Positions 11,960 to 34,671 are shown, counted from the first letter of the stretch. The stretch: 64,000 nt of DNA from Chloroflexota bacterium (GCA_003228115.1 QEVV01000006.1:25094-89093), one strand, 5' to 3'. Program-made: numbers and translations. Notes: generated from the sequence alone by a model not told the origin.

Positions 11960-12559
11960 GTGGATAGATGGCTCAACAAGCCTAGCCGACCTGGAACAGC
12001 GGTACGACGAATGGCTAATGGCTATGACTCAGACTTGACGGAGAAGTACCACTACCAAGGCGCCCGCCTAGTCGCCGAATGCCTGGAACAGTACGTCGAC
12101 AAGCACGCCAGCATCCTGAATGCCGGCGCTGGCGGCGGCCTCTCCGGCGTGGCACTGGCTGCGAAAGGGTACGCAGATCTGGTTGCTATCGACCTATCAG
12201 AGGGTATGCTCCAATCGGCGCGAGAGAAGGGCGTCTACCGGGATGTCCACCGCATGGTGCTCGGCGAGGTCTTGGACTTCGAAGATGGAACATTTGATGC
12301 AGTGACTAGCGTGGGTATCTTCACGATGGCCCATGCACCAGCCAGTTCCTTCGACGAGCTGATCCGCGTTACCAAGCCGGGAGGGTACATCGTCTTCACG
12401 CTATCCGAAGAGGCCTACGAGAAGGCCGGCTTCAAGGAAAAGCTGGCAAGCCTTGAATCGGATTGGAAGTGGAGCAGGGTGGAGATGCAGCCAGGGCAGG
12501 AGCTCAGTCAGGGCTCAGGCGTCTTGCATCAGCTCTGGGTGTTCCAGACCAGCATCTGA
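11960..12559 (+). CDS. Class I SAM-dependent methyltransferase (5' end apparently frameshifted; see findings)
   Basis: ILNAGAGGGLSG (motif I), DLSEGML and VTKPGGYIVF. The likely ancestral start is ATG 11937, which follows AGGAGG but is in another frame. The internal ATG 12011 (MANGYDSDL) is an alternative start. Confidence 0.75.
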   Translation: MDRWLNKPSRPGTAVRRMANGYDSDLTEKYHYQGARLVAECLEQYVDKHASILNAGAGGGLSGVALAAKGYADLVAIDLSEGMLQSAREKGVYRDVHRMVLGEVLDFEDGTFDAVTSVGIFTMAHAPASSFDELIRVTKPGGYIVFTLSEEAYEKAGFKEKLASLESDWKWSRVEMQPGQELSQGSGVLHQLWVFQTSI

Positions 12560-13923: not shown

Positions 13924-14892
13924 TTACCCGGCCATCACTATCGCCACCTTACCCATGACGCGCCGTTCTTCTATGAAGCGCTGGGCCTCTCCGACTTCCG
14001 CGATGGGCCATGTTCGTTCAACGGTAGGCTTCAAGCGGCCGTCGGCGAGCATTTGCAAGAGTGCTGCAAAGTCGCTATGCGACGTGCCGGTGCCGCCGGA
14101 GCCAAGGACGGCTACCCGAAGACGGAAAATGTTGCTGAGGTTCAGCGTTACCTCTCGTCCTCCGGCCGTACCGTATATGGCAATGCGGCCATTGGGCTTG
14201 ATGCAATTGAGCGACTCAAGGAATGCGTTGCCGCCTACGCCGTCCACCACTGCGTCCACCCCAGCGCCGCCTGTTAGCTCCTTAACCTTGTCGGCGTAGG
14301 TGCCGCTGGAGTAGTTGACTCCATGGTCCATACCCTGGGCGCTTGCATAGGCCAGCTTCTCGTCGCTGCTCGCTGTGCCGATGACGGTCGCTCCTAGGAG
14401 CTTGGCGATCTGAATGGCGGCTACGCTCACGCCGCCCGCTGCCCCTTGGACCAGCACCGTCTGGCCTGCCTGGACCTGGCACTTGTTGACCAGGGCATCC
14501 CATGCCGTCGAGCATGTTATTACACACGTGGAGGCTTCAAGCATGCCCAGGCCCTTCGGCAGCTTGTAGAGATTCTCTGCCGGTGACTTCACAAGCTCCG
14601 CGTAGCTATAGCTCGCGTTCCGCAACGCTACTTCGTCCCCCACGGCAATGTTCGTCACTCCATCTCCGATGGACTCAACGATGCCCGCGCCCTCTCTACC
14701 AAGCAAGGAGGGAAAAACGAAGCCGCCCGCTGGAGCCGGGGCCCGGCCAGAGCGGGTTGTTATGTCGGTGGGGTTGACGCCGGCGCTGTGCATTCGTAGC
14801 ACTGCCTCGCCGGGACCCGGTTGAGGGTCCGCGACTTCTTCTAGTTTGAGGACTTCCGGGCCGCCGAATTCATGGAATTGGATTGCTTTCAT
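13924..14892 (-). CDS. Zinc-type/quinone oxidoreductase (MDR superfamily)
   Basis: MKAIQFHEFGGPEVL N-terminus and GAAGGVS cofactor motif. ATG 14892 follows AAGGAG. The track start 14916 is less likely. Confidence 0.85.
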   Translation of the reverse strand: MKAIQFHEFGGPEVLKLEEVADPQPGPGEAVLRMHSAGVNPTDITTRSGRAPAPAGGFVFPSLLGREGAGIVESIGDGVTNIAVGDEVALRNASYSYAELVKSPAENLYKLPKGLGMLEASTCVITCSTAWDALVNKCQVQAGQTVLVQGAAGGVSVAAIQIAKLLGATVIGTASSDEKLAYASAQGMDHGVNYSSGTYADKVKELTGGAGVDAVVDGVGGNAFLESLNCIKPNGRIAIYGTAGGREVTLNLSNIFRLRVAVLGSGGTGTSHSDFAALLQMLADGRLKPTVERTWPIAEVGEAQRFIEERRVMGKVAIVMAG

Positions 14893-14934
14893 GATGCTCC
14901 TTCTGAACATTCGCACAAATAGTTGGCTGGGGTC

Positions 14935-16407
14935 CTAGCTAAGATTCACCGTCACGCTCTTGCGCTGGGTGAAGCTCTCCAGCATGCCTTCCAAAGAAAA
15001 CTCTCGACCGATGCCGCTCATCTTGAAGCCGCCGTAGGAGTGCCCCGGGACCTGCCCGAGGCCTCGATTAACCTGAACCCAGCCCGATTCTATCGCGTGA
15101 GCCGTGCGCAGGGCCTTGCTAAGGTCCTTGCACCAGACGTAGGCGGCAAGCCCGTAGTGGCTGTCGTTGGCCATCTGAATGACTTCTTCTTCTTCCGACC
15201 AGGGAATGGCCACGACGACAGGGCCGAAGATCTCTTCGCGTGCGATACGCCAGTCATTGCCAACGTCCGCGATGATGGTTGGCTGGACGAAGAAACCGTC
15301 GGCAAGGGGGCCATCAGTGGGGGGAAGGCCACCCATCAGCACGCGCGCCCCCTGTTGCTCAATTCCCTCCGTGATGTAACTGCAAACCCGGTCGTACTGC
15401 TTGCGATTGATGATGGCGCCCATATCCACAGTCTCGTCCATGGGATCACCGATCTTCAAGGTCGATAGCTTGGCCATCATTTTCTCTAGGAAGGAGTCGT
15501 AGATGGACTCGTGGAGGAAGAGCCGGGAACCGGCGGTGCAAGACTGTCCCTGACGAGTGAACCGCATACCGGCGATAACGCCATCGACGGTCTTGTCGTC
15601 GATGGAATCAGGGAACACGACGGCTGGGCTCTTGCCGCCTAGCTCCAGTGAGACCGGCAGGATGCGCTCCGCTGCGGCGTGCATGACAAGTTTCCCGACC
15701 TCAGTCGAACCGGTGAAAGAGAGTTTCCCGATAAGCGGGTGGACTGCCAAAGCTGCGCCAGCTTCCTCGCCGTAACCGGTGATGATGTTCAGGACGCCCG
15801 GAGGAAGGATCTCGCTGCAGATCTGACCCATCTTCAGAACGGCGATCGGCGCATCTTCCGCTGCCTTCATCACCAGTGTATTCCCTGCGGTGATGGCCAT
15901 AGCAATCTTTAGCGCACCCAGCATTACGGGGGCATTCCAGGGAATGATTCCACCTACGACGCCTATGGGCTCCCGACGGTTGTAGACCAGCATGTCCTCG
16001 CTGATGGGTACAACCTCCCCCTTCAGCTCCGTAGCTACGCCCCCGAAATAACGAAAAATGTCAGCAGTCGTCTTCGCCTCGGGCCGTGCCTGGGTGCGGA
16101 TGGCATTGCCCGTCTCCAAGGCGATGGTATGGGCAATATCCTCAATTGCTGCTTCCATGGCATCGGCGATCCGCATCATCATGCGGCCTCGATCCCTCGG
16201 CGCGGCCACTCGCCACGTCTTGAATGCCGCCGCTGCTACTCGGACGGCGTGGTCGACGTCCGCCTCAGTGGCGCGCGGCACTCGGGCGATGGCTTCGCCA
16301 TGCCGCGCAGGGTTTTCTACCAAAATCGTCCGGCCGTCGATGGCCTGGATTTCCTTGCCATCAACAAGCATCGACAACACTTCCACCTGACCTGCTACTT
16401 CAACCAT
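14935..16407 (-). CDS. NAD(P)+-dependent aldehyde dehydrogenase
   Basis: ELGGKSP and GQSCTAGSR (catalytic Cys) motifs. ATG 16407 follows GGAGGAGGA. Confidence 0.9.
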   Translation of the reverse strand: MVEVAGQVEVLSMLVDGKEIQAIDGRTILVENPARHGEAIARVPRATEADVDHAVRVAAAAFKTWRVAAPRDRGRMMMRIADAMEAAIEDIAHTIALETGNAIRTQARPEAKTTADIFRYFGGVATELKGEVVPISEDMLVYNRREPIGVVGGIIPWNAPVMLGALKIAMAITAGNTLVMKAAEDAPIAVLKMGQICSEILPPGVLNIITGYGEEAGAALAVHPLIGKLSFTGSTEVGKLVMHAAAERILPVSLELGGKSPAVVFPDSIDDKTVDGVIAGMRFTRQGQSCTAGSRLFLHESIYDSFLEKMMAKLSTLKIGDPMDETVDMGAIINRKQYDRVCSYITEGIEQQGARVLMGGLPPTDGPLADGFFVQPTIIADVGNDWRIAREEIFGPVVVAIPWSEEEEVIQMANDSHYGLAAYVWCKDLSKALRTAHAIESGWVQVNRGLGQVPGHSYGGFKMSGIGREFSLEGMLESFTQRKSVTVNLS

Positions 16408-16547
16408 TCGTCCTCCTCCTCTGTTGTCATGGAAATACTGGGGGCCGCTTGGAAACTGCGAACGCTGAGGGTGGGTCTGAGACACCGCCCCTACCTGACG
16501 CTTGATCGCTTCGTGAGGGCTCCTGGCTTACACACCTACTTGCTGGT

Positions 16548-17441
16548 CTAAGCGCCGGGCTCCAGCAGCTTTGCTACAGCGGAGAAATCGAGCCTGCCAT
16601 AGCCCTGTCGACTGGCTGCTGCGTACATTTCCCGGGCCACGGCGGCCATGGTCATCGGTAGCTTCACTTCTGAGCCGGCTGCCAGAGCCAGGCCCAGGTC
16701 TTTATACATAAGGTCCGTCATGAACCCTGGTGCAAAGCCGTGGCTGGCGGGGCTGTCAGCAACGACCCCCGGCACAGGGCAACGAGTCTCCAGCGGCCAA
16801 CAGTTGCCTGAACTCTTGCTCATAACGTCGAACATTACCTGGGGATCGGCGCCCTTGGCCACCCCCAGAGCGAACGCCTCAGCCACGCCTACCATGGCCA
16901 CTGCCGCCACAAGGTTGTTGGCCAGCTTGACCGTTTCGCCCATGCCAATGGAACCACAATGGATGATGTTGGTTCCCATTGCCGATAGCAGGTCGTATTG
17001 AGCTTCCAGAAGATCAGCATCGCCGCCGACCATAATGGTGAGCGTGGCGGAGATGGCGCCGGCTGAGCCTCCGCTGACAGGGCCGTCCAACATCCGTGCT
17101 CCGGCAGCGGTCACTGCTTCGGCGACCTTGCGCGTGGTGTCGGGATCAATGGTGCTCATGTCGATGACCGTAGTCCCGCTCCGCAGGCCCGCTATGAAAC
17201 CATCAGGCCCATTGGCGGCGGCAACGACGTGCTGTGAGGCCGGCAGCATGCAAATGACGACCTCCACACCTTCAGTGGCTTCCCGAGCCGAACCAGCGAC
17301 CTTCGCTCCAAGCGACGCTATGGCCTCAACGGCCTCCCCGTTGATGTCGTAGATGGTGAGATCATGTCCTGCCTTGATTAAGTTTGTGGCCATGGGCCCG
17401 CCCATCGTTCCCAGGCCAATGAAACCTACCTTCTTGCTCAT
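16548..17441 (-). CDS. 3-hydroxyisobutyrate/beta-hydroxyacid dehydrogenase family
   Basis: VGFIGLGTMGGPMATNL Rossmann motif, followed by a 6-PGDH-like C-terminal domain pattern. Confidence 0.9.
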   Translation of the reverse strand: MSKKVGFIGLGTMGGPMATNLIKAGHDLTIYDINGEAVEAIASLGAKVAGSAREATEGVEVVICMLPASQHVVAAANGPDGFIAGLRSGTTVIDMSTIDPDTTRKVAEAVTAAGARMLDGPVSGGSAGAISATLTIMVGGDADLLEAQYDLLSAMGTNIIHCGSIGMGETVKLANNLVAAVAMVGVAEAFALGVAKGADPQVMFDVMSKSSGNCWPLETRCPVPGVVADSPASHGFAPGFMTDLMYKDLGLALAAGSEVKLPMTMAAVAREMYAAASRQGYGRLDFSAVAKLLEPGA

Positions 17442-17678
17442 TTGTGCTACCTCCCTCTATGCGTGGTGAACGTTATCATGCCGGGTATGGGTCTACAACG
17501 AGCGGGACAGTAGAGGGGCAAGGGAGCCCGAAGGTCCTCAGGTGGCCGGTCATTCCCCCGTGCGCAGAACTGGAACATAGGCACGCTGGCTCTACTAACA
17601 ACGACTTCGGGGTTAAGGCCATGGGACTCATGCCGAGGGGCCGATGTTGCGCCATATCGAAGGGCCGCGAGGGCGCGG

Positions 17679-18413
17679 TCAGTCCTTCAGGGCGGGCCAC
17701 TCCTTGTACAGCCTTCCGCCCCCTTTACCGTCCACCGGATGCCTTTGGCCCAATAGCGACAGAATGTGCCACAGCATAGAAGATGCGCTGGCGACAATGG
17801 GCAACTTGAAATCGGCTTCCATACGCTCTAGGACCGGCAGAGGGTCAAGGATGGCTGCTTGAAAGTAGATGGCGTCAACCTCACCCGCCTGAGCCAAACC
17901 CTCCGTGACGAGCTTGTAGATGTCATCTGGGCCAACGTTGGCGGCTGTCCGGAAGTCGGCTGTGGGTGGGGAGCCTATGACTGATTCAATGCCTCTTTCG
18001 GAAAGGAAGCCGCGTACCATTTCGTTCAGAGGCCCGTCGAACGGAGTCATAAGCATTACCCGGCGCGCGCCCAAAGCCTTCAATCCTGCGATGGATGACT
18101 CAAGGGCAGTGGTAACAGGTATTGAAGCGTTCTTTCGAATGCTGCCTGGCAGCCCAGGGGCGTAGAGCTGAACCGGGGCACCAACGAGCACAGCGCCCTG
18201 CCAGGCAGGATGGCGCTCAAAGATGGCTTGGGCCCTCTCCACGCCAAGCTCCTCCTTCCCCACTAGTGATGTGAGCGTTCCCTCGACCAAGTCCAAAGCC
18301 TCTATCTCCAAGGTTATGTTGCCTGGGATAAGGGGTTTGACATTGTCGAAGAACGCTCCGTTTCCGCTGTAAGGGGCAAGGTAGCCAACAGTGATGTGCT
18401 GGTCCTGGGTCAT
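17679..18413 (-). CDS. Asp/Glu/hydantoin racemase superfamily protein (maleate isomerase/arylmalonate decarboxylase-like), cysteine-free
   Basis: Family pattern RRVMLMTPF...GIESV and DAIYFQAAI...PIVASASSMLW. The translation contains no Cys at all. Confidence 0.65.
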   Translation of the reverse strand: MTQDQHITVGYLAPYSGNGAFFDNVKPLIPGNITLEIEALDLVEGTLTSLVGKEELGVERAQAIFERHPAWQGAVLVGAPVQLYAPGLPGSIRKNASIPVTTALESSIAGLKALGARRVMLMTPFDGPLNEMVRGFLSERGIESVIGSPPTADFRTAANVGPDDIYKLVTEGLAQAGEVDAIYFQAAILDPLPVLERMEADFKLPIVASASSMLWHILSLLGQRHPVDGKGGGRLYKEWPALKD

Positions 18414-18519
18414 GGCAATCTCCTCTGAGCGAAATCGTTAGGCCTGAAGTCTTCGGAAGAAACACTGGGTCGCCGGAAAGCATATTGACGTCTATGGATT
18501 GTAATTGGCATCAGTGGCC

Positions 18520-19341
18520 TTAGACAGGGATGGTTGCTAAGAAACCCAGGATCGCCCGATTGAACTCTTCCGGCTTCTCTACGTTGCACATGTGGCCCGC
18601 TCCCTTGATGACCTTCAGAGAGCAGTTAGGGATATGCCGGTTCATGTACTCACCCTCTTCGACGGGCGTGCGGCCGTCCTCTTCGCCATCAATGATGGCA
18701 GTGGGCACGTGAATGTCTCTAAGACGATCCCTAATATCAACGCCAAACGACGCTCTCGAATAGGCAACGGCGGAGTGCACGGCGATCTTGTAGGACTCTG
18801 CCGTGTATTTGCGAACTAGGGCTGGATCGTAGCTAGGGGAAAACCAGTACTTGGCGTACTGGTCAAGGAAGGCCTTCATGCCCAAGGTGGCAATTTCTTC
18901 GCCGATGGCCATGTTGGGAGCGTCGCCGGCCTTATCAGGGGGGAAACCCTTCAATGGGCCCTTGGCGGGAAAGCCTGCTAGTGCCCCGACCAAGGTCAGG
19001 CTCCTCACCCTTTCCGGAGCCAGGTGGTAGAGGAATTGGCCCACGAGAGTGCCCATGGACAAGCCTACGAAGTGGACGCTATCGAAGCCTAGCTCATTCA
19101 TCATCGCCAGCACATCGCTGGCCACAAGGGCAGGGGAGTAATGCTCATCGCCTTCGGGCTTGGCCGAGTCCCCGTGACCTCGCATGTCGATAGCGATGAC
19201 GCGGTAATTGGGCGTAAGCACCGGGAGCTGGAGGTCCCAAACGTTCTTGTGACCTCCGAAGCCGTGCACCATGACGACAACATCGCCGAACCCTTCATCC
19301 AGATAGGCGATCTCCAGTCCGTTGACCTTGATTGCAGGCAT
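18520..19341 (-). CDS. Alpha/beta hydrolase (enol-lactonase/meta-cleavage hydrolase-like)
   Basis: HGFGG oxyanion motif, GLSMG nucleophile elbow, and GAGHM near the C-terminus. Confidence 0.85.
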   Translation of the reverse strand: MPAIKVNGLEIAYLDEGFGDVVVMVHGFGGHKNVWDLQLPVLTPNYRVIAIDMRGHGDSAKPEGDEHYSPALVASDVLAMMNELGFDSVHFVGLSMGTLVGQFLYHLAPERVRSLTLVGALAGFPAKGPLKGFPPDKAGDAPNMAIGEEIATLGMKAFLDQYAKYWFSPSYDPALVRKYTAESYKIAVHSAVAYSRASFGVDIRDRLRDIHVPTAIIDGEEDGRTPVEEGEYMNRHIPNCSLKVIKGAGHMCNVEKPEEFNRAILGFLATIPV

Positions 19342-19376
19342 AGCTACTCCCGATCACACGTAAGTTTCATCAAATG

Positions 19377-20138
19377 TTAGGCATTATCGATGAGTCTGCC
19401 CCAGCCGAGGCTACGAGGCTTGGCCTTCATTGCCCGAAGCGTGGCCCAGAACATGGCAAGGTCTCCTCCCACCACTGGCAACCCCGTGTCCTCCTCAAGC
19501 TCTTTTGCCAGACCAATGAGACGCAAGCCACCACCGAGAACCACTATAGCTTCGGTGGAATCCGGGGCCCGCCTCGCTGTCTCCCGCACGGCTGCACAGG
19601 TCGGGGCAGGGTCATGGTCCCAGGCAAGCCGGTCCTGTTCCTCGATTGAGCCCACGATTCCTTGTTGAATCCAGCCTTCTTGATAAACAACTTCGAACCC
19701 GTTCGACTCGAGTCCAGAGCGGGCCATTTTCGCCCAATCGGCTGCCGTGTAGTAACCACCGGCAACCGCCACACGGCGCGCGCCAAATTCTGCAAGGGCC
19801 TCCAACATGGCAACACCCATCAGCACCACGGGCACGCCCGCTGCGCTGGCAACGCACGCCTGAATGGCGTGTGCATCCGGACCGTGGGTAAGAGAGAATG
19901 GAACGCCAAACTGAGCCACGATATCGGCTCCGGCGTCAGCAAGGTCGCGGGCCGCATCGTTCATCCCAGGCACCGCAGCCTTGATGACATCAAGCGAGAA
20001 GCCAGCCATCGTCTTGCCAAGAAGCGTTGCGGGTATGAAGGCGCCTGCTACTTCCGTGCCTTCGGGCGCTAAGCGGAGGAAGTCAGTGGGGGCGCTGTTG
20101 AACCAGCGCTTGGGGCCGAGAAACCCTATCTTGGCCAT
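19377..20138 (-). CDS. Asp/Glu/hydantoin racemase superfamily protein, second paralog
   Basis: RRVAVAGGYY...GFEVV and EAIVVLGGGLRLIG...PVVGGDLAMFW. The internal ATG 20138 (MAKIGFLG) removes the overlap with the upstream gene. Confidence 0.65.
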   Translation of the reverse strand: MAKIGFLGPKRWFNSAPTDFLRLAPEGTEVAGAFIPATLLGKTMAGFSLDVIKAAVPGMNDAARDLADAGADIVAQFGVPFSLTHGPDAHAIQACVASAAGVPVVLMGVAMLEALAEFGARRVAVAGGYYTAADWAKMARSGLESNGFEVVYQEGWIQQGIVGSIEEQDRLAWDHDPAPTCAAVRETARRAPDSTEAIVVLGGGLRLIGLAKELEEDTGLPVVGGDLAMFWATLRAMKAKPRSLGWGRLIDNA

Positions 20139-20163
20139 TGCATCGAGTCCGGTGGGCCGGACT

Positions 20164-20583
20164 CTACCTCTCCATAAGTAGCTGGCCGCCGTAGGTCTCA
20201 ACCTTGTCCACCTCGACGATGACAGCAACGCCCTTCTTCTCTGGATCCCTACCTTGCTCGAATTCGACGACCCGATCCCACACCTGCTCGCGAAGGTCTC
20301 CGCTTTCGATGACCGTTGCCCGACCGTAAAACTTCCATCCGATTCTGGCGTCCCTGTTCATGAACATCACGGCTATCTTCGGATTCTTGCTGACGTTGGC
20401 AAGGCCGTCTCGTTTGGATCTCTCCCAGTAGGCTAGGCGATCGGCGTCGAAGACCATGGTGCTGCCCCGGTAGCCGATGCTAGGCCACCCGTCCGGATCA
20501 GAGGCAGTCATGATGCAGGGGAAGCCGCTGGCCAGTGCAGCGTTCACGTTCTCAGCCATCTCTTCGGTTAGCTCAATTGCCAT
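20164..20583 (-). CDS. Pyridoxamine 5'-phosphate oxidase-like split-barrel flavoprotein
   Basis: 139 aa with a PNPOx/FMN-binding split-barrel sequence pattern (GWPSIGYRGS...IAVMFMNRD...). GGGAG RBS. Confidence 0.7.
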   Translation of the reverse strand: MAIELTEEMAENVNAALASGFPCIMTASDPDGWPSIGYRGSTMVFDADRLAYWERSKRDGLANVSKNPKIAVMFMNRDARIGWKFYGRATVIESGDLREQVWDRVVEFEQGRDPEKKGVAVIVEVDKVETYGGQLLMER

Positions 20584-20605
20584 CGATAGTTCTCCCAGGT
20601 CTAGA

Positions 20606-21529
20606 CTAGCTTGGAATTGCTTCTTTTTGGGTTATCACGGACACCCTTCCCGCGGGCGTGCTCGGATCGGGTTGATAAAGGTGCTCACGCCCTGGAGCCA
20701 GCTGCTCCATATACAAGACTTCTTCAAAGCCCTGGAATCTGATGGCTACTGCGTAGTAATAGTCTAGGGGCAGGTGGAGCTTAGCCACGCCCTTAGCGTT
20801 GGTGACGAAGCGGCCATGACCCGCAACTACAACTACCGCGCCAGGAACTGGAACGCCCTCTTGGTCAAGGATTTGCAACCTTGCGGCCCTCCTTGGAAAC
20901 AGCATACCGCTGGCCCACCGTCTGAGCTGCACAAAAGGCCCAGGCGTTGGCCCTGGTCCAATATTGTCGACTACGTCTTTCTCATACCCTATGTGCTTCG
21001 GTGTCCGCCAGTCAGGTCCGTACTTGAGCTGCAGATACTCTTCCGGCGGATTGGGAACCCTGAACTTCGTGCCTAGGAAGTCTATCTCCTTGAGCTGGTC
21101 GAAGAGCCGGACCGGAAGCACAACGCCCGGATAAATATGAACCTGTCCCTTTATGGGACGGAAGAAGGTCAGGGACATCATGTGCCTGTTCTTCAACATA
21201 CCCAGGTAGACGTGCGTATCGAATTCGTCCCTCTTTACGTAATAGTCCGCTTCCCGGAAAGCCGCGATGATGGGCTCAATCATTGCCTCTGAGAAGCCAT
21301 GCAGACCGAAGGTCGTCCCAAGGTCAATGTCATCATCCCAGGGAATGATCCCGCCTTCTCTTATGGCGCCGAGGCATATCCCATCGCGCAGATAGAAAGT
21401 TACCCCAAGCTCATCAAGGATGCCCTTTGCCTCTAGTAGAATCGCACCGGCAATAGCGGGATCCATAGCAGGGAGTGTTTTGATCAGCTCTTCAAGGATT
21501 GCTTCGTTTTCGACGTCGCTTAACGCCAT
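20606..21529 (-). CDS. LicD-family (phosphocholine/phospho-alcohol) transferase with a C-terminal extension
   Basis: DGICLGAIREGGIIPWDDDIDLG is the LicD signature. About 100 extra C-terminal residues resemble a carboxypeptidase-regulatory-like beta-sandwich. ATG 21529 is preferred because track start 21574 overlaps the upstream gene. Confidence 0.75.
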   Translation of the reverse strand: MALSDVENEAILEELIKTLPAMDPAIAGAILLEAKGILDELGVTFYLRDGICLGAIREGGIIPWDDDIDLGTTFGLHGFSEAMIEPIIAAFREADYYVKRDEFDTHVYLGMLKNRHMMSLTFFRPIKGQVHIYPGVVLPVRLFDQLKEIDFLGTKFRVPNPPEEYLQLKYGPDWRTPKHIGYEKDVVDNIGPGPTPGPFVQLRRWASGMLFPRRAARLQILDQEGVPVPGAVVVVAGHGRFVTNAKGVAKLHLPLDYYYAVAIRFQGFEEVLYMEQLAPGREHLYQPDPSTPAGRVSVITQKEAIPS

Positions 21530-21539
21530 CGGTACTGCC

Positions 21540-22283
21540 TTATAACTGAACGGTGGTGAATAAATCCTCTGCATTCGCTAGGTCTTCCTTCGTGTCGACC
21601 TCTATCCAGCGGCGATTCCCCGTCTGGTGCACACCCAGTTGAATCTTGCCCTCGCTGATGAGGCCTGCGAGAACCGCTTCATAAAACTGTTCGGTGAGCC
21701 CCTCGGTCACAAACCAGTCAAGCTTCGGAAGAAAGTGCTCCCGCATGGTGCCTTGCGAGATCTTGTAGATGTTCACGGTCTTCAGGGCATCGTTGTAGCG
21801 AAAACCCGCTGACTGATTGGCCCCCAGCACCAGGGAAGTTGCTACACCGTGCTCGGAAAGTATTACCGTTCCATTCATGAACGGCTGGAACGCCTCAACC
21901 ACGGCGGCATCGGCGTGGGGCTGACCCATAAGGTCAGTGATAAGCTCTGGTTCAAAGAGAAGGTCCCCGTCGAGCAACAGAATGTCGTCTGCCAATAGGT
22001 GCCGGGCCAGCCACAACGAGTAGATGTTATTGGTTTTCAGGTGCTCTTCGTTGGTAACGTAGGTAAGCCGCATGTCTCCGAACATGGCGCCGAACCGTTC
22101 CCGGACCAACTCGCAGAGATAGCCGACGACAATGACACAGTGATCAACGCCAACTTGCTGTAGAGATGCCAGCTCGTGTTCCAGAATCGGCTTCCCAAGC
22201 ACTTCTACCAAGCACTTGGGCACCCGGTTAGTTAGTGGCCGCAGCCTGGTTCCGCCACCTGCCGCTAGGATGACTGCCTTCAT
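21540..22283 (-). CDS. LicC-like nucleotidyltransferase (cytidylyltransferase family)
   Basis: MKAVILAAGGGTRLRP, VVGYL and NNIYSLWL match the LicC-type pattern. Its ATG overlaps the upstream stop (ATGA). Confidence 0.8.
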   Translation of the reverse strand: MKAVILAAGGGTRLRPLTNRVPKCLVEVLGKPILEHELASLQQVGVDHCVIVVGYLCELVRERFGAMFGDMRLTYVTNEEHLKTNNIYSLWLARHLLADDILLLDGDLLFEPELITDLMGQPHADAAVVEAFQPFMNGTVILSEHGVATSLVLGANQSAGFRYNDALKTVNIYKISQGTMREHFLPKLDWFVTEGLTEQFYEAVLAGLISEGKIQLGVHQTGNRRWIEVDTKEDLANAEDLFTTVQL

Positions 22284-23395
22284 TTCTCCGCTCTCCTGCC
22301 CAGACGAGCCTCTTCCCCAGCCATGCCCGAGCTTAGCGATAGGAGAGCATCGATTAGCTCTGCGTTCTCTTCCTTGGTGCGGGAAGCCATCCTGACATAC
22401 TGACCATCAAGGCCACTCTTGCCGCCGCAGTCGTTAATCAATATGTTGCATTCATCGAATAGGCGTGCAGTCAAATCTGAGCCCGTTGAGCCCCCGACGA
22501 CTCGGCTAAGGACGTAATTGCCCTCGCTTGCGTAGGGGTGAAGGTAGGGAACGGTTTGTAACCCGGCGAACAAGGCGTCGGTCGCCTGTCTCACCAGTTC
22601 GCAGGACTCGACGAACTCTGATCGATACGCTTCTAGCTCCTCCAAGAACGCCTGAGCCAGAGAGTTGATGCTCCAAATGGGAATGGCGCTACGGAGTTCG
22701 GCCACGACTTCTTCTTTGCCAGAAACGGCATATCCCAATCGCAGTCCCGGAATGCCATAGGCCTTGGAGAGGCTCTTCAGGATAACGAGGTTAGGAAACT
22801 CGAAGATCGCATCCATCACAGACGGCGAAAGACCCTGGCTGGAGAAGTCGAGAAAGGACTCGTCCACCAAAACGAGATCGAGATGGCGGAGGGACTCAAG
22901 GAGATGCAGGACCTCTTGCCGGGAGACGAGCTTGCCGGAGGGGTTATTGGGGTTAATCACCAACGCAGCATTGGCATGAGTGTCTTGTACATGCCTAACG
23001 AACGCCGGCACGTCCAACTCGAAGTCTCCGTCGAGCTGGTACGGACTTACCCGCTTGCCTTCGATCACTGCTCTGTTCACGAACTCATCGAAGGTGGGCA
23101 CTGCCACTGCCAGGTGCTCTACGAAACGACTGGCGATAGCCGTAATTAGTTCGCTCGCTCCGTTGGCCACCACGACTTGCTCATGTGTCAAACCCAGGGG
23201 TTCGGCGGCCAAGGAGGAAATGTGCCCGTTGGTAGAAGGGTAGGAGGAGACAAGCTCCTTTAGCCGCAGTCCGAGGGAATCGAACATTCCCTGCGGGGGA
23301 AAGTAGCGGTTGGTCATGTAGCAGAAGTCTTTGACCTCGTAGTTCCAGAAACCTCCGTATCGGGAGGCTACGTCTTTCACATTCAGTCGACTCAT
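22280..23395 (-). CDS. Class I/II PLP-dependent aminotransferase/decarboxylase (HisC/CobD-like)
   Basis: NPNNPSGK and SLSKAYGIPGLRLGY (PLP Lys) motifs. ATG 23395 follows GGAG. The track start 23632 overlaps the HyuB gene and is unlikely. Confidence 0.8.
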   Translation of the reverse strand: MSRLNVKDVASRYGGFWNYEVKDFCYMTNRYFPPQGMFDSLGLRLKELVSSYPSTNGHISSLAAEPLGLTHEQVVVANGASELITAIASRFVEHLAVAVPTFDEFVNRAVIEGKRVSPYQLDGDFELDVPAFVRHVQDTHANAALVINPNNPSGKLVSRQEVLHLLESLRHLDLVLVDESFLDFSSQGLSPSVMDAIFEFPNLVILKSLSKAYGIPGLRLGYAVSGKEEVVAELRSAIPIWSINSLAQAFLEELEAYRSEFVESCELVRQATDALFAGLQTVPYLHPYASEGNYVLSRVVGGSTGSDLTARLFDECNILINDCGGKSGLDGQYVRMASRTKEENAELIDALLSLSSGMAGEEARLGRRAEK

Positions 23396-23532
23396 AGGTT
23401 TGCACTCCGAATCACGCCCCGTTTGGGGGGCACAGGAGCACTCTATCACGTTCGCGATGTGACCATTCCCAGGTTCCAGGCGTGGTCGTGAGGCGAATTG
23501 ATGAATTGGAACACGTGGCTGAATTACCCCGG

Positions 23533-25773
23533 CTATTGCGGAGTTAGCCAAAAGTCCTGATATGGCTCGTCTGACTCCGCAATGGCAGGGCAGACCACGT
23601 CGCTTTGCAGTAAGACCCCGCACCCAGGGCAATAGAACCTGTGGAACTCGCCAATGTAAGGCTCACCCGAAGGCATCCTTTGCCCCGCCAGGTCCTCAAG
23701 GCTTTCAACCACCCTGGAGCTGTAGGACTTATAGTTCTCGTCAGCTCCGCAGAATAGGTGTCCACAGTCCGAACAGCGAATGGCAAGGTCATTGCCGGAG
23801 GCCGCTACTTCCAAGGTCTCGTGGAACTGGAGGAAGGGCTCCCAAATAGCGGACTTTCGTTCCAGCGATAGAGACGATGTTTGACCCGAATGAGAAGCTG
23901 CGGCCGACCGCTCCTTGCGTATACGCGCCCGAAGGGCCTCCGTCGCCTTTTCTTCCAGTGCAAATGATTCAGAGCCAACAATAACGCCAAACAACTTCTC
24001 AGCCATCCGTACCGAAACGATTCCATCGCGGACATCTTTGACCACACGCCAAGACTCCCTTTGGACGGGGTCCCCATAGCCTGCGCCACCGGCAGCAAAG
24101 TCAGTGACGATGGAGTACTCCGGTAGCGGAGATCGTCCGAGCATTTCGGGCGAGTGTTTAACCGTGCCCCATCCCTCCTTCTCCAACTGTTCGGGCCTGA
24201 TGGGGTAGGGCTCCTTCTTTAAGCGTTCGATTATGGAAGAGCCCTCCGTGTGGAACACACCTCGAGTGCCGCCAACACCCGATGGTAGACCGCCGAAAAG
24301 CCCGGCCCCTTCAGGAATGCCGCCGTAGGGCATGTAGTTCACCGTCGTGTCCTGAGAGCCGTAGATCATATACATGCGGTAGCTTCCGGCCCCACCGATG
24401 AACTTTCCCGCTCCGCCGCCGTCCCGGTGGAAGTTCCGAGTGAAGTACAAGAACGGGTACTGCATTTCAATGCGCTCGACGTCGCTGATCCCGCCGGAAG
24501 GAATGTTCATGTTCCCCCCGCAAGGAACGCCGTCACGGTCCGGGGTTGCCCCCAGGCCGGAGCCGTGACCGTCGTAGAGCCCCTGAGCCGTCACCATCCC
24601 TGCACGATTGTGGCCGCCGTAGAAGGACAGGGGGCCGCCGCTGTACCAAATGCCCTGCCAGGGAGCGTTGATGTCGTCGGATTGACCTCCGGCGTAGAGC
24701 ATCTTAGCTATGCACTCGCTAGCCGCCATTTTTGCGGTGACACCTACGCCCGGAGCACCGCCGCAAGCAGCAGGGAATGTGCAGTTCAGGATGCTCCCTT
24801 CCGGCGCCGATGATTTCACAGGGGCAAACTTCCCATCGCTCCAAGGGACGTCCCAGAACAAAAAGTCCGTCAGAACCACCGCCAATTGGGCCATCGTCCC
24901 TGCCCACGATGAGTTGGTGGTGTCAGTCATTTGGCCACTGGAGCCCGTGAAGTCGAACGACAACTCGTCATCCTGCTTGGTCATGGTGCAGGCGACGAGA
25001 TAGGGCTGAACCCCGCCGTTGACCCGGTCCCAAGCGGTCCCGTAGGCGTGCGAGGCCCAGGTGCCATTTGGCAAGCCCCGGAGCTTGGCCCTGGCCATCC
25101 GTTCAGAGTCCTCGATGATCTTTTCACCAGCCATTTGGATGAAGTCGACCCCGAACTTGCCTACTAGCTCAAGGTAGCGCTTGGAGCAGACGTTGTTGGA
25201 CGTAATCATCGACTTCATATCCAGACCAACATAGCCCGGGTCCCGGCACTGCTCCGTGATGCAACGAAACACGTCTTCGCGAAACTCGCCCTTCTCGACC
25301 AGCTTCAGGCCCTGAATCCGTATGCCCTCGTGGAAGATCTCAGTGGCCAGTCCCCGCATGACGCCGCCGGTGTCGGCCGTATGGATGCTGGAAGCCAGCC
25401 AGCCTATAAGCTCCCCGGCGTGGAACATGGGCTTGACGATCATCATGTCGTAGGTGTGAGCGCCGGCGATGTACGGGTCGTTGAAGAACAGTTGGTCTCC
25501 CTCGAAGAAACCAGGGCTGTCCGCATACCATTCGATCAGCTTCTTGATGGCGTCTGAGGTGGCCGCGGCAAAGCGGAGGTGGCCGGAACAAGCCAGCACC
25601 ATGACGCCGTCTTTGTTATAAAACGAACTCATGCATTCGCCGCCCTGGGACACGATGGGGGACGCGGTGACCTGCTGGAGCGATGTCCGTCCCTCCTCAC
25701 CGATGGCCCATAGGCGGTGCAGAAACATCTCATATTTAACTGGGTCCAGTTGAGCAGTTACAGCGGTTACCAT
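23533..25773 (-). CDS. Hydantoinase B/oxoprolinase family protein, acetone-carboxylase-alpha-like, with a C-terminal Cys4 module
   Basis: HyuB-type N-terminus LDPVKYEMFLHRLWAIGEEG. The C-terminus carries CSDCGHLFC...CPGCG. ATG 25773 follows GGAGGG. Confidence 0.85.
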   Translation of the reverse strand: MVTAVTAQLDPVKYEMFLHRLWAIGEEGRTSLQQVTASPIVSQGGECMSSFYNKDGVMVLACSGHLRFAAATSDAIKKLIEWYADSPGFFEGDQLFFNDPYIAGAHTYDMMIVKPMFHAGELIGWLASSIHTADTGGVMRGLATEIFHEGIRIQGLKLVEKGEFREDVFRCITEQCRDPGYVGLDMKSMITSNNVCSKRYLELVGKFGVDFIQMAGEKIIEDSERMARAKLRGLPNGTWASHAYGTAWDRVNGGVQPYLVACTMTKQDDELSFDFTGSSGQMTDTTNSSWAGTMAQLAVVLTDFLFWDVPWSDGKFAPVKSSAPEGSILNCTFPAACGGAPGVGVTAKMAASECIAKMLYAGGQSDDINAPWQGIWYSGGPLSFYGGHNRAGMVTAQGLYDGHGSGLGATPDRDGVPCGGNMNIPSGGISDVERIEMQYPFLYFTRNFHRDGGGAGKFIGGAGSYRMYMIYGSQDTTVNYMPYGGIPEGAGLFGGLPSGVGGTRGVFHTEGSSIIERLKKEPYPIRPEQLEKEGWGTVKHSPEMLGRSPLPEYSIVTDFAAGGAGYGDPVQRESWRVVKDVRDGIVSVRMAEKLFGVIVGSESFALEEKATEALRARIRKERSAAASHSGQTSSLSLERKSAIWEPFLQFHETLEVAASGNDLAIRCSDCGHLFCGADENYKSYSSRVVESLEDLAGQRMPSGEPYIGEFHRFYCPGCGVLLQSDVVCPAIAESDEPYQDFWLTPQ

Positions 25774-25824
25774 ATTCCCTCCATGATGATTGTTGAGGCG
25801 CTCATATGAGCCCTCCAGCAACTT

Positions 25825-26514
25825 CTAAGCATCGAACCAGCTTCGCGCTTCCTTGCCTTGGAACAGCTTGCCTGTGATGTTGGCAGGCTGCGTTACGAGA
25901 AACAGGGCGGCTGCGGCCGAGGTCCTGGGGTCGCCGGGGGCGTCTGGGGCCATGTCTGTCCGGACCCAGCCTGGCGATAGAACGTTAACCGCCACCCTTC
26001 CCCGGAGCTCCTCAGCCACCGCAAGGCTCATTCCATGCAATGCGAGCTTTGTGACGCCATACGTGCCATGCAAAGTTGGTGACATGATTCCTGCGCGGGA
26101 ACCAAGGTTCAAGACTCTGGGGTCGTCCGACTTTAGTAATAGGCTCAGCATGCGTTTCGTGCACAGGTACGGGCCGAGCACATTCACAGCCATCGCAATG
26201 GATAGCAATTCATCCGGCCCGTCGGTCAATTCACGGCTCTCTTCGGAAAATACAGCGGCGTTGTTGACTAGGATGTCCAGCTTGTCCCACTGGTTCCCAA
26301 CGTATTCGACGACGCGGTCAACATCTTGTGCCTGGGAGACGTCGGCCTGAAGTATTTGGAGGCCCGGTAACGCGCCGAGCGCTTGGGCGAGCTTCGAAGA
26401 GTCTCTGGACACCGCTAGGACGGCAGCGCCTTCTTCGAGAAGTATCTTGCATATTTCGAAGCCTATACCCCGGCTTCCTCCGGTTACCACCGCGGTCTTG
26501 CCGACCAATTGCAT
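25825..26514 (-). CDS. Short-chain dehydrogenase/reductase
   Basis: TGGSRGIG, NNAA and YGVTK motifs. Confidence 0.9.
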   Translation of the reverse strand: MQLVGKTAVVTGGSRGIGFEICKILLEEGAAVLAVSRDSSKLAQALGALPGLQILQADVSQAQDVDRVVEYVGNQWDKLDILVNNAAVFSEESRELTDGPDELLSIAMAVNVLGPYLCTKRMLSLLLKSDDPRVLNLGSRAGIMSPTLHGTYGVTKLALHGMSLAVAEELRGRVAVNVLSPGWVRTDMAPDAPGDPRTSAAAALFLVTQPANITGKLFQGKEARSWFDA

Positions 26515-27215: not shown

Positions 27216-27259
27216 AACCAACGGAAGGGCCCGGATTTCTCCGAGCCCTTCCGTTGGTT
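27216..27259. terminator. Long hairpin between convergent genes
   Basis: 15-bp arms AACCAACGGAAGGGC (27216-27230) and GCCCTTCCGTTGGTT (27245-27259), with additional inner pairs. Confidence 0.55.
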
Positions 27260-27296
27260 ACGATCTTCGCGTGTAGAACCCGAACCCCTTCGGCTG

Positions 27297-27350
27297 CTAG
27301 AACCCGAATCCCTTCGACTGGTTGAAGAACTTCACAGTGCCGTTCGCCAT
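27297..27350 (-). pseudogene. Cold-shock protein (CspA-family) 5' gene fragment
   Basis: ATG at 27350 gives MANGTVKFFNQSKGFGF then a stop. This is the beta1-beta2/RNP-1 part of a cold-shock domain. A second degenerate AAGGGGTTCGGGTTC copy lies 6 nt downstream. The rest of the domain is not found in any frame of 27034-27296. Confidence 0.5.
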
Positions 27351-27824
27351 GTATTGCGGGCCGGTTCCATCGCCAGGATCGATTGTTGCGCGCACCGCTG
27401 CCAGCGCAGTGGTCAACGCCCTAGGGTCGGTTGGGTCGGTCAGCGTGCCTCGTAGTGACAAGGAAACCATCTCGATTGGTATTTTGGAGAACTCTATGTC
27501 ATATGTAACATCAAAGAAAGAATCGACGTTGAAGCTAGAGGCCCTAACGCCGTCCAAACCGCTTGACCCGATGTTCGCCACTCCGTACGTGATGTCGAAG
27601 AATGAGTCCACGATAAAGCCGGACTCCGCGGGGTCGAGCTCGATAATACGTGCCATTACCTGGTCAGGCGTTGTACTGAAGACAGCTAGTTCTATCCGCA
27701 CTTCGCCTTTTACGTTAGTGGCAGCCTGAGCTTCGGGCTGATACATGGCGAATAGTGCCGCCGCCGCGACAGCGACGAGCATCGAAACCGACAGCGCCCA
27801 GGCCCTCTTGCGTATGAATTGCAT
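27297..27824 (-). CDS. Secreted hypothetical protein (signal peptide; internal VDSFFD[IV]TY duplication) whose ORF ends in a cold-shock-protein N-terminal fragment
   Basis: N-terminus MQFIRKRAWALSVSMLVAVAAAALFAMYQPEAQA is a signal peptide. The motif DSFFDITY / DSFFDVTY occurs twice. The last 17 codons read MANGTVKFFNQSKGFGF. Confidence 0.55.
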   Translation of the reverse strand: MQFIRKRAWALSVSMLVAVAAAALFAMYQPEAQAATNVKGEVRIELAVFSTTPDQVMARIIELDPAESGFIVDSFFDITYGVANIGSSGLDGVRASSFNVDSFFDVTYDIEFSKIPIEMVSLSLRGTLTDPTDPRALTTALAAVRATIDPGDGTGPQYMANGTVKFFNQSKGFGF

Positions 27825-29989: not shown

Positions 29990-30715
29990 CTAGCCGCAGA
30001 GCAGTTGGAACAGCGACGAAGAGGAGAGCGGCAGCCCAGGCCAATCGTTGGTGCCCACCATCAAACGGGGATGAAGCCCATTAATTCCCAGGTCTGGCGC
30101 ATGGTGCAACGTGATAAGCGGGAGGTCTGGGAATCGTTCTCTAAGAAAGGTTACATTCTCTAACTGAACGTCGGTAAGCACGAAATCGATACCATTCAAA
30201 ACAATGAATTCTACTGAGAGCCCATGCGCCTTTGCGGCCTCCAAGGTCAAGAGGGTGTGGTTTAAAGTCCCCAACCCGGGCCGGGCCACGAGAATTATGG
30301 ACGCATTGGCCATCTCGGCGAGGTGTCTGAAATCATGACCATCAGCGTCGATTGGGACGAGCAATCCCCCCGAGCCCTCAATGAGGGTGACGTCGTGCCT
30401 TTCGGCCAGCTTCCGACAGTTCTGAGCCAATTCTACGATGTCGATGTCGCGTCCGGCTCTGCGAGCCGCGATCGCTGGGGCCAGCGGATCGGGCAGGGAT
30501 ATCAACGTTTCAAGGGTCATATGTCGACCCGCCGTTAGCTTGGCGTATACGGTCTGGTCCGCTTGAGCCCCGTCCGCCACACCCGTTTGGATCCCTTTTA
30601 TGAGGGCGACACTGCAATGCGAGGCAAGCTCAAAGGCCATCCAGCCAGACACCACAGTTTTACCGACATCCGTGTCCGTGCCAGTTACGAGATAGGTGCG
30701 CACCGGTTCGCTCAA
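29990..30715 (-). CDS. bioD: Dethiobiotin synthetase
   Basis: YLVTGTDTDVGKT P-loop. The track start is TTG 30715, which overlaps the upstream TGA (cTTGAgc). An alternative GTG lies 12 nt inside. Confidence 0.9.
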   Translation of the reverse strand: MSEPVRTYLVTGTDTDVGKTVVSGWMAFELASHCSVALIKGIQTGVADGAQADQTVYAKLTAGRHMTLETLISLPDPLAPAIAARRAGRDIDIVELAQNCRKLAERHDVTLIEGSGGLLVPIDADGHDFRHLAEMANASIILVARPGLGTLNHTLLTLEAAKAHGLSVEFIVLNGIDFVLTDVQLENVTFLRERFPDLPLITLHHAPDLGINGLHPRLMVGTNDWPGLPLSSSSLFQLLCG

Positions 30716-31950: not shown

Positions 31951-32006
31951 GATGAATCCGTGTCCTGCCGATATTCCCTACGGAAGGATACCATCATGAC
32001 TGAGGA

Positions 32007-33194: not shown

Positions 33195-33273
33195 AGGAGT
33201 GTCACCAAAGGTTTCTGGGAGAGGGCGGAGGCTTTAGACAGCGGTACTTCCTGTGGCGTAATCCCAAGAGCCC

Positions 33274-34638: not shown

Positions 34639-34671
34639 ATCGCCACCTTGAGCCAGGTTCGGACCTGAGTA

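Follow-up and report, generated by a model that had tools for sequence, protein, structure and literature searches.

Putative de novo pathway to a CDP-activated phospho-amine head group encoded by a CobD-like, LicC-like and LicD-like gene cassette in a Chloroflexota genome

The minus strand of a 64,000-nt stretch of DNA from a Chloroflexota bacterium (GCA_003228115.1 QEVV01000006.1:25094-89093; hereafter, the window) contains at positions 20606-23395 three tightly packed open reading frames (ORFs). They encode a CobD-like pyridoxal 5'-phosphate (PLP) enzyme, a LicC/PntC-like nucleotidyltransferase and a LicD/FKRP-like phosphotransferase, and are proposed here to form a pathway for the synthesis and transfer of a phospho-amine head group. 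The gene for the PLP enzyme (371 aa, 22280-23395) starts with the ATG at 23395 and ends with TGA at 22282-22280, the nucleotidyltransferase gene (247 aa, 21540-22283) extends from the ATG at 22283-22281 to the TAA at 21542-21540, and the phosphotransferase gene (307 aa, 20606-21529) starts with the ATG at 21529. The junction between the first two genes reads GAGAAATGAAGG; here the TGA of the PLP gene overlaps the ATG of the nucleotidyltransferase gene in an ATGA (22280-22283, minus strand) that can be read directly in the sequence, and translational coupling of the two enzymes is predicted from this overlap. A 10-nt spacer separates the nucleotidyltransferase stop codon from the LicD start codon. 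The motifs INPNNPSGK and SLSKAYGIPGLRLGY are present in the PLP enzyme, MKAVILAAGGGTRLRP and NNIYSLWL in the nucleotidyltransferase, and IPWDDDIDLG in the LicD-like protein. Three consecutive minus-strand genes with these motifs, the overlap and the gap had been described in an earlier interpretation of the window made without database searches (the sequence-only reading), and all of them hold.

Pfam searches match the PLP enzyme to Aminotran_1_2 (103.8 bits), the nucleotidyltransferase to NTP_transferase and NTP_transf_3, and the product of the third gene to LicD. The ATG at 23395 is the most plausible start of the PLP gene, since GGAG lies 9 nt upstream of it (23408-23405) and the homologues are 366-371 aa long. 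For the LicD-like gene, some gene callers choose an upstream in-frame ATG at 21574 (322 aa), but the start at 21529 is favored by the length of the homologues (~302 aa) and by the family alignment. The cassette is preceded by a 137-nt intergenic spacer (23396-23532, minus strand), possibly its promoter region; a scan for promoters and terminators between 17.5 and 27.5 kb revealed no sigma-70-like promoter, and terminator-like hairpins occurred at background level only. Among all window ORFs of at least 180 aa, Pfam searches identified no choline kinase, permease, phosphoenolpyruvate (PEP) mutase, phosphonopyruvate decarboxylase, cobamide gene or glycosyltransferase, and no his genes near the cassette. 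A scan of the 64-kb window for the choline-kinase Brenner motif gave no match. Together with a motif scan for PEP mutase (Ppm), these results agree with the statement of the sequence-only reading that licA, licB, PEP mutase and phosphonopyruvate decarboxylase (Ppd) are missing from the 64 kb.

The PLP enzyme belongs to neither the CobD nor the HisC equivalog. Its best NCBIfam model is CobD TIGR01140, with 188.5 bits falling ~100 bits short of the cutoff of 290.55, and the HisC model TIGR01141 gives 170.3 bits, below its cutoff of 276.55. The family alignment shows no variation at the PLP-site residues N151, D178, S208, S210, K211 and R219 or at R335, which binds phosphate, and almost none at R339. 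A profile of the family scores 219.7 bits with the structure 6OUX, 184 bits with 3FTB, 145 bits with S. enterica CobD, and at most 134 bits with any HisC. The top match 6OUX is SMUL_1544, annotated (by its protein database name and Foldseek description) as the norcobamide-biosynthesis serine-O-phosphate decarboxylase of Sulfurospirillum; pairwise, the window enzyme is 28% identical to it (8e-45).

Phylogenetic and structural comparisons point in the same direction. In a neighbor-joining tree with 100 bootstrap replicates, built with one HisC sequence and without Cj1437 (discussed below), the PLP domains of the window, of SAR202 bacteria and of the fusion proteins described below are monophyletic in 100/100 replicates. 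Its sister group in 81/100 replicates is formed by the SMUL_1544-like sequences, followed by CobD and 3FTB, with HisC outside. The AlphaFold2 (AF2) model of the enzyme, with a predicted local distance difference test (pLDDT) score of 89.2, has 6OUX and CobD as top Foldseek matches, with HisC structures close behind. By these sequence comparisons, the nearest characterized relative is the phosphoserine decarboxylase SMUL_1544 and not HisC; a firm clustering with the histidinol-phosphate aminotransferases, which would have contradicted the sequence-only reading, was not observed. We predict that the PLP enzyme is an O-phospho-L-serine decarboxylase producing phosphoethanolamine. Its homologues are labeled histidinol-phosphate aminotransferase or threonine-phosphate decarboxylase in the source databases, and the present analysis corrects these labels.

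Two other activities were considered for this enzyme. It might be a Cj1437-like transaminase that converts dihydroxyacetone phosphate (DHAP) and glutamate to (S)-serinol phosphate, or forms another amino-alcohol phosphate, so that the cassette would make a CDP-serinol-like donor (CDP, cytidine diphosphate). The HisC/CobD subfamily includes both decarboxylases and transaminases that act on phosphate esters, and according to PMC11800397 it holds the phosphoserine decarboxylase Cj1436 as well as Cj1437. The phosphate-binding arginines are common to both reaction types, the HisC models nearly match CobD (170 vs 188 bits), DHAP is universal, and no kinase would be needed. We nevertheless regard a transaminase as unlikely: SMUL_1544 and CobD outrank HisC by profile, tree and fold, and relatives of the cassette pair the module with a phosphoethanolamine-N-methyltransferase-like enzyme.

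The second activity is that of a true CobD-type L-threonine-O-3-phosphate decarboxylase, in which case the cassette would use (R)-1-aminopropan-2-yl phosphate as head group and activate it to a CDP-aminopropanol. It would agree with TIGR01140 as the best NCBIfam model and with the rank of S. enterica CobD among the top sequence and fold matches. However, the score is 100 bits under the CobD cutoff, the clade is nearer to the phosphoserine-specific SMUL_1544 than to CobD, threonine phosphate requires a dedicated kinase that does not accompany the module in any of 80 loci, and cobamide genes are absent from the vicinity of the cassette, all of which makes this activity quite unlikely. We know of no sequence signature that tells decarboxylation from transamination. 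The pneumococcal CDP-2-glycerol genes gtp1-3 were considered as a possible further example with a CobD-like protein, but Gtp3 is named just a putative phosphotransferase in the literature, and this candidate was set aside.

The nucleotidyltransferase is most similar to enzymes that activate phospho-amines and phosphono-amines. In a single-sequence search, its best PDB match is LicC of S. pneumoniae (1jyk, 5.5e-19), with the next match at 3e-14. A profile built from 25 family members scores 115 bits with LicC (3.4e-32) and 95.5 bits over the full length with PntC (6pd1, 3.1e-26), whereas the best sugar-1-phosphate enzyme reaches 71 bits (8e-19). The sugar-1-phosphate models listed by NCBIfam all score far below their cutoffs; CTP:inositol-1-phosphate cytidylyltransferases are also found among the profile matches (CTP, cytidine triphosphate). 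The amine of the head group is contacted by two acidic residues, E104/E196 in PntC and D105/D192 in LicC (PMC6697681). According to the alignment rather than a structure, D105 and the invariant E202 of the window enzyme correspond to these pairs, and at the position of D105 at least 90% of the family members have Glu. The profile ranking and the presence of both amine-site acidic residues place the enzyme with the phospho(no)-amine cytidylyltransferases, and the grouping with LicC and PntC rather than with sugar-1-phosphate enzymes, as assumed by the sequence-only reading, is thereby upheld. We predict that it acts as a CTP:phosphoethanolamine cytidylyltransferase.

The likeness to PntC raises the question of phosphonate tailoring, in which the PLP enzyme would form 2-aminoethylphosphonate (AEP) from phosphonoacetaldehyde by transamination, a PntC-type enzyme would make the cytidine monophosphate (CMP) derivative CMP-AEP, and LicD would install it, with Ppm and Ppd encoded elsewhere. 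The full-length profile match to Tde-PntC (3.1e-26) and the PntC-type Glu/Glu pair of most family members would be compatible with such a role, and both PntC–aminotransferase fusions and LicD partners are on record (PMC6697681). On the other hand, the known AEP transaminases, including one fused to PntC (6pd1), belong to class V, while the window enzyme is of class I/II and HisC/CobD-like, and nucleotidyltransferases of this kind were reported inside ppm-containing clusters (Rice et al., PMC6697681). The Ppm motif EDKx5NS is absent from the window and from 85 related loci (1.47 Mb in total), where the scan returned a single spurious match in non-coding sequence, and on this result a phosphonate origin was rejected; we consider it very improbable. 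The sequence-only reading had left the choice between a phospho-amino-alcohol and an aminophosphonate; the former is favored by our results and the latter is unlikely.

The LicD-like protein matches the Pfam LicD profile with 49.7 bits (cutoff 22.6) over profile positions 4-34, which represent its N-terminal part only, and shows a weak NCBIfam match to Mf1, named diacylglycerol cholinephosphotransferase. All family members keep the aspartates D65, D66, D67 and D69 in the WDDDxD motif, which includes the DxD metal motif of LicD enzymes. Its AF2 model (pLDDT 90.5) has the expected nucleotidyltransferase-like fold, with the catalytic domain of FKRP as the top Foldseek match (5.7e-9); FKRP is a LicD-family enzyme that moves ribitol phosphate from CDP-ribitol. 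The ~500 homologues are ~302 aa long, and the two that carry organism names both come from Chloroflexi/Chloroflexota. The C-terminal residues ~214-300 (20630-20890, minus strand) constitute a transthyretin-like (CarboxypepD_reg) beta-sandwich, as indicated by a weak Pfam match to PF13620 (4.6e-4) that is precomputed for many homologues too, by an AF2 model that is all-beta over residues 216-285, and by Foldseek matches to the transthyretin-like domains of carboxypeptidases D/N. This domain possibly binds the acceptor. Inspection of the translation and the AF2 model, with no dedicated prediction run, showed neither a signal peptide nor a transmembrane segment, and the enzyme is therefore probably cytoplasmic. 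By homology, it is predicted to move the phospho-head group from a CDP donor to an acceptor.

The first two genes are linked by their conservation. In a genome scan with one genome per species we found at least 597 loci with relatives of the PLP enzyme and examined the best 80. In every one of these 80 loci that has flanking sequence, a nucleotidyltransferase homologue directly adjoins the PLP gene or is fused to it. The closest genomes are metagenome-assembled genomes (MAGs) of Dehalococcoidia/SAR202. Separate, adjacent genes are present in each of the 27 SAR202-like loci with sufficient flanking sequence (45-65% identity; one of them from a Vicinamibacterales MAG), and their order is almost always PLP enzyme then nucleotidyltransferase. 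Carriers of the module include complete SAR202 genomes such as OZ250156.1, OZ245439.1 and OZ240214.1. In ~54 further loci (33-38% identity), the pair is fused into a protein of ~600 aa with the nucleotidyltransferase at the N-terminus (for example, L041:9245-11053, L034:9242-11050, L070:9245-11083 and L062:9242-11062). The fusion is carried by Bacteroidales, Alistipes, Treponema, Lachnospiraceae/Clostridia, Mogibacterium, Aquificales, a delta-proteobacterium and a Methanomicrobia archaeon, and among cultured organisms by Lacrimispora algidixylanolytica, [Clostridium] aerotolerans DSM 5434, Mogibacterium timidum ATCC 33093, Treponema lecithinolyticum ATCC 700332 and Lachnospira intestinalis. 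An exhaustive search for the nucleotidyltransferase produced 261 cluster representatives at E <= 1e-30, and roughly 40% of the best 150 of these have the length of the fusion. Other lengths in the family include 493 aa (P0365), 448 aa (P0372), 1013 aa (P0411), 899 aa (P0477) and 999 aa (P0503); domain positions in this set also vary and include a C-terminal nucleotidyltransferase or one embedded in proteins of ~1000 aa, which suggests further fusion architectures.

The fusion and the conserved adjacency across phyla are strong evidence that the PLP enzyme and the nucleotidyltransferase catalyze consecutive steps. An identical nucleotidyltransferase in the same gene order was also observed on independent contigs from several marine metagenomes, and this, together with the adjacency or fusion in all of the 80 related loci that have flanking sequence, places the arrangement far beyond chance. 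These contigs and the closest genomes indicate that the window very probably stems from a marine Chloroflexota bacterium of the SAR202 clade. A LicD gene lies within a few kb of the pair in 17 of the 27 SAR202-like loci and in 21 of the 54 others, so that the co-occurrence of the cassette genes in relatives, on which the sequence-only reading depended, was also observed. These data bear on the view that a housekeeping HisC or CobD enzyme is by coincidence, or as part of a cobamide module, placed beside an unrelated sugar-1-phosphate or CobY-type nucleotidyltransferase. The histidinol-phosphate aminotransferase and threonine-phosphate decarboxylase labels in databases and the sugar-1-phosphate models of NCBIfam would suggest this, but the model scores are far under the cutoffs, the genes are adjacent or fused across phyla, LicC and PntC are the best matches, and no his or cob genes are nearby. 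A coincidence or a cobamide module of this kind is extremely improbable. The assembly of a cobamide loop by a CobD and CobY-like pair was rejected as a candidate function: the window contains no cob genes, the partners of the pair are LicD, methyltransferases and CDP-alcohol transferases, and the profile of the nucleotidyltransferase matches LicC and PntC.

The additional genes that accompany the pair in relatives are informative about the head group. A highly conserved class I methyltransferase of 245-260 aa, MT9, directly follows the nucleotidyltransferase in ten SAR202 loci (L008, L012, L016-L022 and L027; e.g. L018:11946-12704), often together with LicD. It has no specific PDB relative, the best being LahSB at 3.7e-10, with phosphoethanolamine N-methyltransferase (PMT) at just 4.5e-5. 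In four other loci, one from Vicinamibacterales and three SAR202-like (L013:4822-8546, L015:9992-13488, L025:9992-13477 and L029:11-3300), the pair is joined by a CDP-alcohol phosphatidyltransferase and another methyltransferase, MT23; the PLP enzymes of these relatives are 48-59% identical to that of the window. The best matches of the MT23 profile are plant phosphoethanolamine N-methyltransferases (5e-19), and the alignment runs past the S-adenosylmethionine (SAM)-binding core into the RES…YR.P..Y region of the first domain of the plant enzyme. By their gene content, these loci possibly encode a route from phosphoserine via phosphoethanolamine, phosphocholine and CDP-choline to phosphatidylcholine. 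Such an arrangement speaks in favor of phosphoethanolamine as the compound that the PLP enzyme forms.

In other phyla, the fusion belongs to glycan loci, where it is accompanied by LicD (in 21 loci) or TagF-like transferases, by Wzx flippases and by family 2 glycosyltransferases (GT2). In 27 fusion loci the next gene is Octopine_DH-like (16) or OCD/mu-crystallin-like (11). Members of these two families reductively condense primary amines with 2-oxo acids, and their position after the fusion suggests a primary-amine product that is possibly elaborated further. The same neighbors may point to opine-type (N-carboxyalkyl) phospho-amine decorations.

No recurring kinase or permease was found near the module, with a single choline-kinase-like ORF among 2158 neighbor ORFs of the related loci. 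Since the module comes without kinase, permease or PEP mutase, its precursor is expected to be a ubiquitous phosphorylated metabolite. O-phospho-L-serine, an intermediate of the serine pathway, would fit best, and DHAP is the main alternative. The proposal of the sequence-only reading that the head group is made by the PLP enzyme rather than imported as choline is thus supported by the SMUL_1544 placement, the LicC/PntC grouping and the conserved pair.

Based on these results, we propose the following pathway. The PLP enzyme, placed by profile and tree beside SMUL_1544, would decarboxylate O-phospho-L-serine to phosphoethanolamine; with phosphoserine as its direct feed, a kinase and an importer would be needless. 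The translationally coupled LicC/PntC-like enzyme would then use CTP and phosphoethanolamine, the likely nucleotide and substrate, to form CDP-ethanolamine. Finally, the soluble LicD/FKRP-type enzyme would move phosphoethanolamine from CDP-ethanolamine to a hydroxyl group of an acceptor whose synthesis is encoded in another part of the genome. This acceptor is most likely a membrane glycolipid or a glycan that is lipid-linked or exposed on the surface. Because LicD alternates with a CDP-alcohol phosphatidyltransferase in SAR202-like loci and no glycan genes are linked, a membrane glycolipid would be no less likely to serve as acceptor than a polysaccharide.

The complete sequence of steps from phosphoserine through phosphoethanolamine and CDP-ethanolamine to the acceptor has, in our estimate, a probability of about 0.55, and the broader claim of a de novo pathway to a CDP-activated phospho-amine head group is very likely to be correct. 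Several observations weigh against the specific version. The fold ranking of decarboxylases over HisC is marginal (Foldseek, 6e-29 vs 1e-27), and the PLP enzyme is just 28% identical to SMUL_1544 and scores under the cutoffs of both the CobD and the HisC models. Its subfamily also includes Cj1437, described in PMC11800397 as a transaminase that converts DHAP to serinol phosphate. The CTP specificity of the nucleotidyltransferase is assumed by analogy with LicC and PntC, and the window contains no adjacent methyltransferase, glycosyltransferase or lipid gene that would point to the acceptor. Moreover, the final head group in the non-Chloroflexi loci with an Octopine_DH-like or OCD-like gene may not be plain phosphoethanolamine.

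The nature of the acceptor allows a different ending for the same first two steps, namely a soluble phosphodiester serving as an osmolyte or piezolyte, by analogy with di-myo-inositol phosphate made from CDP-inositol. No glycosyltransferase, flippase or lipid gene is conserved beside the module in the SAR202 relatives or found beside it in the window, CTP:inositol-1-phosphate cytidylyltransferases appear among the profile matches, and the LicD-like protein has no transmembrane segment apparent in its translation or AF2 model, for which no prediction was run. Yet LicD and its family members FKRP and Mf1 act on glycans or glycolipids, the module is found in Wzx/GT2/TagF-type glycan loci in other phyla, and the alternative partner in some SAR202-like relatives is a membrane CDP-alcohol phosphatidyltransferase, so we judge a soluble product to be distinctly improbable. 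More generally, and with somewhat less than even confidence, we tentatively suggest that the pair represents a de novo route from phosphoserine to CDP-ethanolamine, or to CDP-choline where PMT-like methyltransferases occur, whose output would depend on the transferase: surface glycans with LicD or TagF-like enzymes, and membrane phospholipids with a CDP-alcohol phosphatidyltransferase.

The cassette is located inside a run of 12 co-directional genes (13924-26514). The nine other genes encode an alcohol dehydrogenase, an aldehyde dehydrogenase, a 3-hydroxyisobutyrate-dehydrogenase-like protein, two Amdase proteins, an alpha/beta hydrolase, a PNPOx-like protein, Hydantoinase_B and a short-chain dehydrogenase (SDR). 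The run of mostly catabolic genes reported by the sequence-only reading is therefore real, but the significance attached to such an odd place for an envelope-decoration module is not sustained by the relatives. The window flanks (Hydantoinase_B, PNPOx-like, Amdase and SDR) accompany the module in no other genome examined, and the neighbors in 22 SAR202-like loci are heterogeneous, comprising IS110 transposases, major facilitator superfamily (MFS) transporters and assorted catabolic enzymes, so the catabolic location carries no information. Glycosyltransferases are absent from the 25 most frequent neighbor families in a Pfam analysis of 138 neighbor proteins from these 22 loci. These genomes abound in catabolic paralogues, among which the cassette forms a self-contained unit. 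IS110 transposases (Transposase_20/DEDD_Tnp_IS110) form the commonest neighbor family, with 5 of the 138 ORFs (L006-L031, within ~7 kb), and their frequency hints at variable or mobile regions.

Other features of the window were noted in the course of the analysis. When orthologues of the genes that partner the module elsewhere (methyltransferases, CDP-alcohol transferase and MFS gene) were sought in the window, only generic SAM-domain matches of 27-29% were obtained, at 11960-12559. Two more class I SAM methyltransferases are present at 11960-12559 (plus strand) and 56011-57045 (minus strand), neither of which looks orthologous to the module partners; the latter gave no match in the search with the partner methyltransferases. 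Directly downstream of the cassette, four minus-strand genes encode two Amdase-type paralogues (arylmalonate-decarboxylase/Asp-Glu-racemase family) around an alpha/beta hydrolase, followed by a PNPOx-like protein (17679-18413, 18520-19341, 19377-20228 and 20164-20583), a probably unrelated catabolic set. Hydantoinase_B/oxoprolinase genes are found at 23533-25821 and 47208-48920 (both minus strand), each adjoining a short-chain dehydrogenase gene (25825-26514 and 46325-47080, respectively), with no Hydantoinase_A among the window ORFs of at least 180 aa. The product of the first is extended at its C-terminus by a further domain, which weakly matches the gamma subunit of acetone carboxylase. An apparent biotin operon (29990-35691, minus strand) was recognized by its domains AAA_26 (BioD-like), beta-ketoacyl synthase, Aminotran_1_2 (BioF-like), Aminotran_3 (BioA-like) and radical SAM/BATS (BioB-like), and the long co-directional run thus spans several unrelated operons. 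Finally, a 175-aa ORF at 27297-27824 (minus strand) has a signal-peptide-like N-terminus and no Pfam match, and ends in GTVKFFNQSKGFGF, the start of a cold-shock domain. After its stop (27240-27300) the codons read QPKGFGFYTRRS*, which suggests either a csp remnant left by truncation or duplication or a frameshift; a 175-aa gene is called at the corresponding position of L001 and L002, two independent contigs.

Decoration with phosphocholine or phosphoethanolamine influences the interactions of bacteria with hosts, antimicrobial peptides and antibodies. To our knowledge, the bacterial routes to them are the import of choline (Lic) or the use of phosphoethanolamine taken from phosphatidylethanolamine. 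If the proposed pathway is correct, bacteria without licA and licB could make such epitopes or lipids straight from phosphoserine, which would represent a new entry point to the synthesis of phospholipid and glycolipid head groups in bacteria. On the more general and more tentative suggestion made above, the pair would also be a prokaryotic counterpart of the plant and Plasmodium phosphoethanolamine-methyltransferase and Kennedy pathway, and host-associated bacteria could obtain phosphocholine or phosphoethanolamine epitopes from it without choline. The module is present in the abundant SAR202 bacteria of the deep ocean and, as a fusion, in cultured gut and oral species, which makes the hypothesis directly testable. 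A full-text literature search found no description of a PLP–LicC-like–LicD module, the sole related match being Rice et al. 2019; subscription journals are mostly outside the coverage of this search, and an earlier description is possible.

Compared with known systems, the module is most likely a choline-independent version of the Lic decoration pathway that has none of the upstream features of the Lic and Pnt systems (LicA, LicB, Ppm and the class V AEP transaminase, AEPT). With the Lic pathway of S. pneumoniae and H. influenzae (LicA kinase, LicB permease, LicC and LicD), the cassette shares the last two steps, in which a CDP-activated phospho-amine would be made in the cytoplasm and then placed onto an envelope acceptor. 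It differs in having neither LicA nor LicB by Pfam and motif scan of the window, with the PLP enzyme predicted to supply the head group, and in a head group that is probably phosphoethanolamine and not phosphocholine. A further difference concerns its LicD homologue, to which the transthyretin-like domain is added and which aligns with the Pfam model in the N-terminal part only. The Ppm–Ppd–AEPT–PntC(–LicD) systems, including the fusion Tde1415 (6PD1; Rice et al. 2019, PMC6697681), resemble the module in that a LicC-like enzyme is coupled or fused to the PLP enzyme that makes the head group, in their LicD-type partners, and in the PntC-type Glu at the amine site of most members of the cassette family. 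In contrast to these systems, the PLP enzyme of the cassette is a CobD-like class I/II protein rather than a class V AEPT, and no PEP mutase was found in the window and the 85 related loci. Tde1415 and the module fusions have the same order, with the nucleotidyltransferase N-terminal, but their C-terminal domains are unrelated.

SMUL_1544 and the PLP enzyme share the motifs CY(L/M)xNxY, INPNNP, DESF, KSLSK, W(S/N)IN and R(I/M)AxRTxEEN, and at 28% identity the same conversion of phosphoserine to ethanolamine phosphate is predicted for the window enzyme. The fate of the product would be different, since it is directed to cobamide loop assembly in the case of SMUL_1544 and would go to the cytidylyltransferase and LicD in the cassette. 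In the C. jejuni capsule pathway, the product of Cj1436 goes to the ATP-dependent amide ligase Cj1438 (PMC11800397), unlike in the cassette. The Kennedy CDP-ethanolamine/CDP-choline pathway and the plant and Plasmodium PMT route use like chemistry, from phosphoethanolamine to CDP-ethanolamine and on to transfer, and relatives of the module add a PMT-like methyltransferase and a CDP-alcohol phosphatidyltransferase. In the module, however, phosphoethanolamine would come from the decarboxylation of phosphoserine and not from an ethanolamine kinase, the transferase in the window is of the LicD type, and the cytidylyltransferase is LicC-type, whereas the eukaryotic Kennedy enzymes are of the CCT/ECT type.

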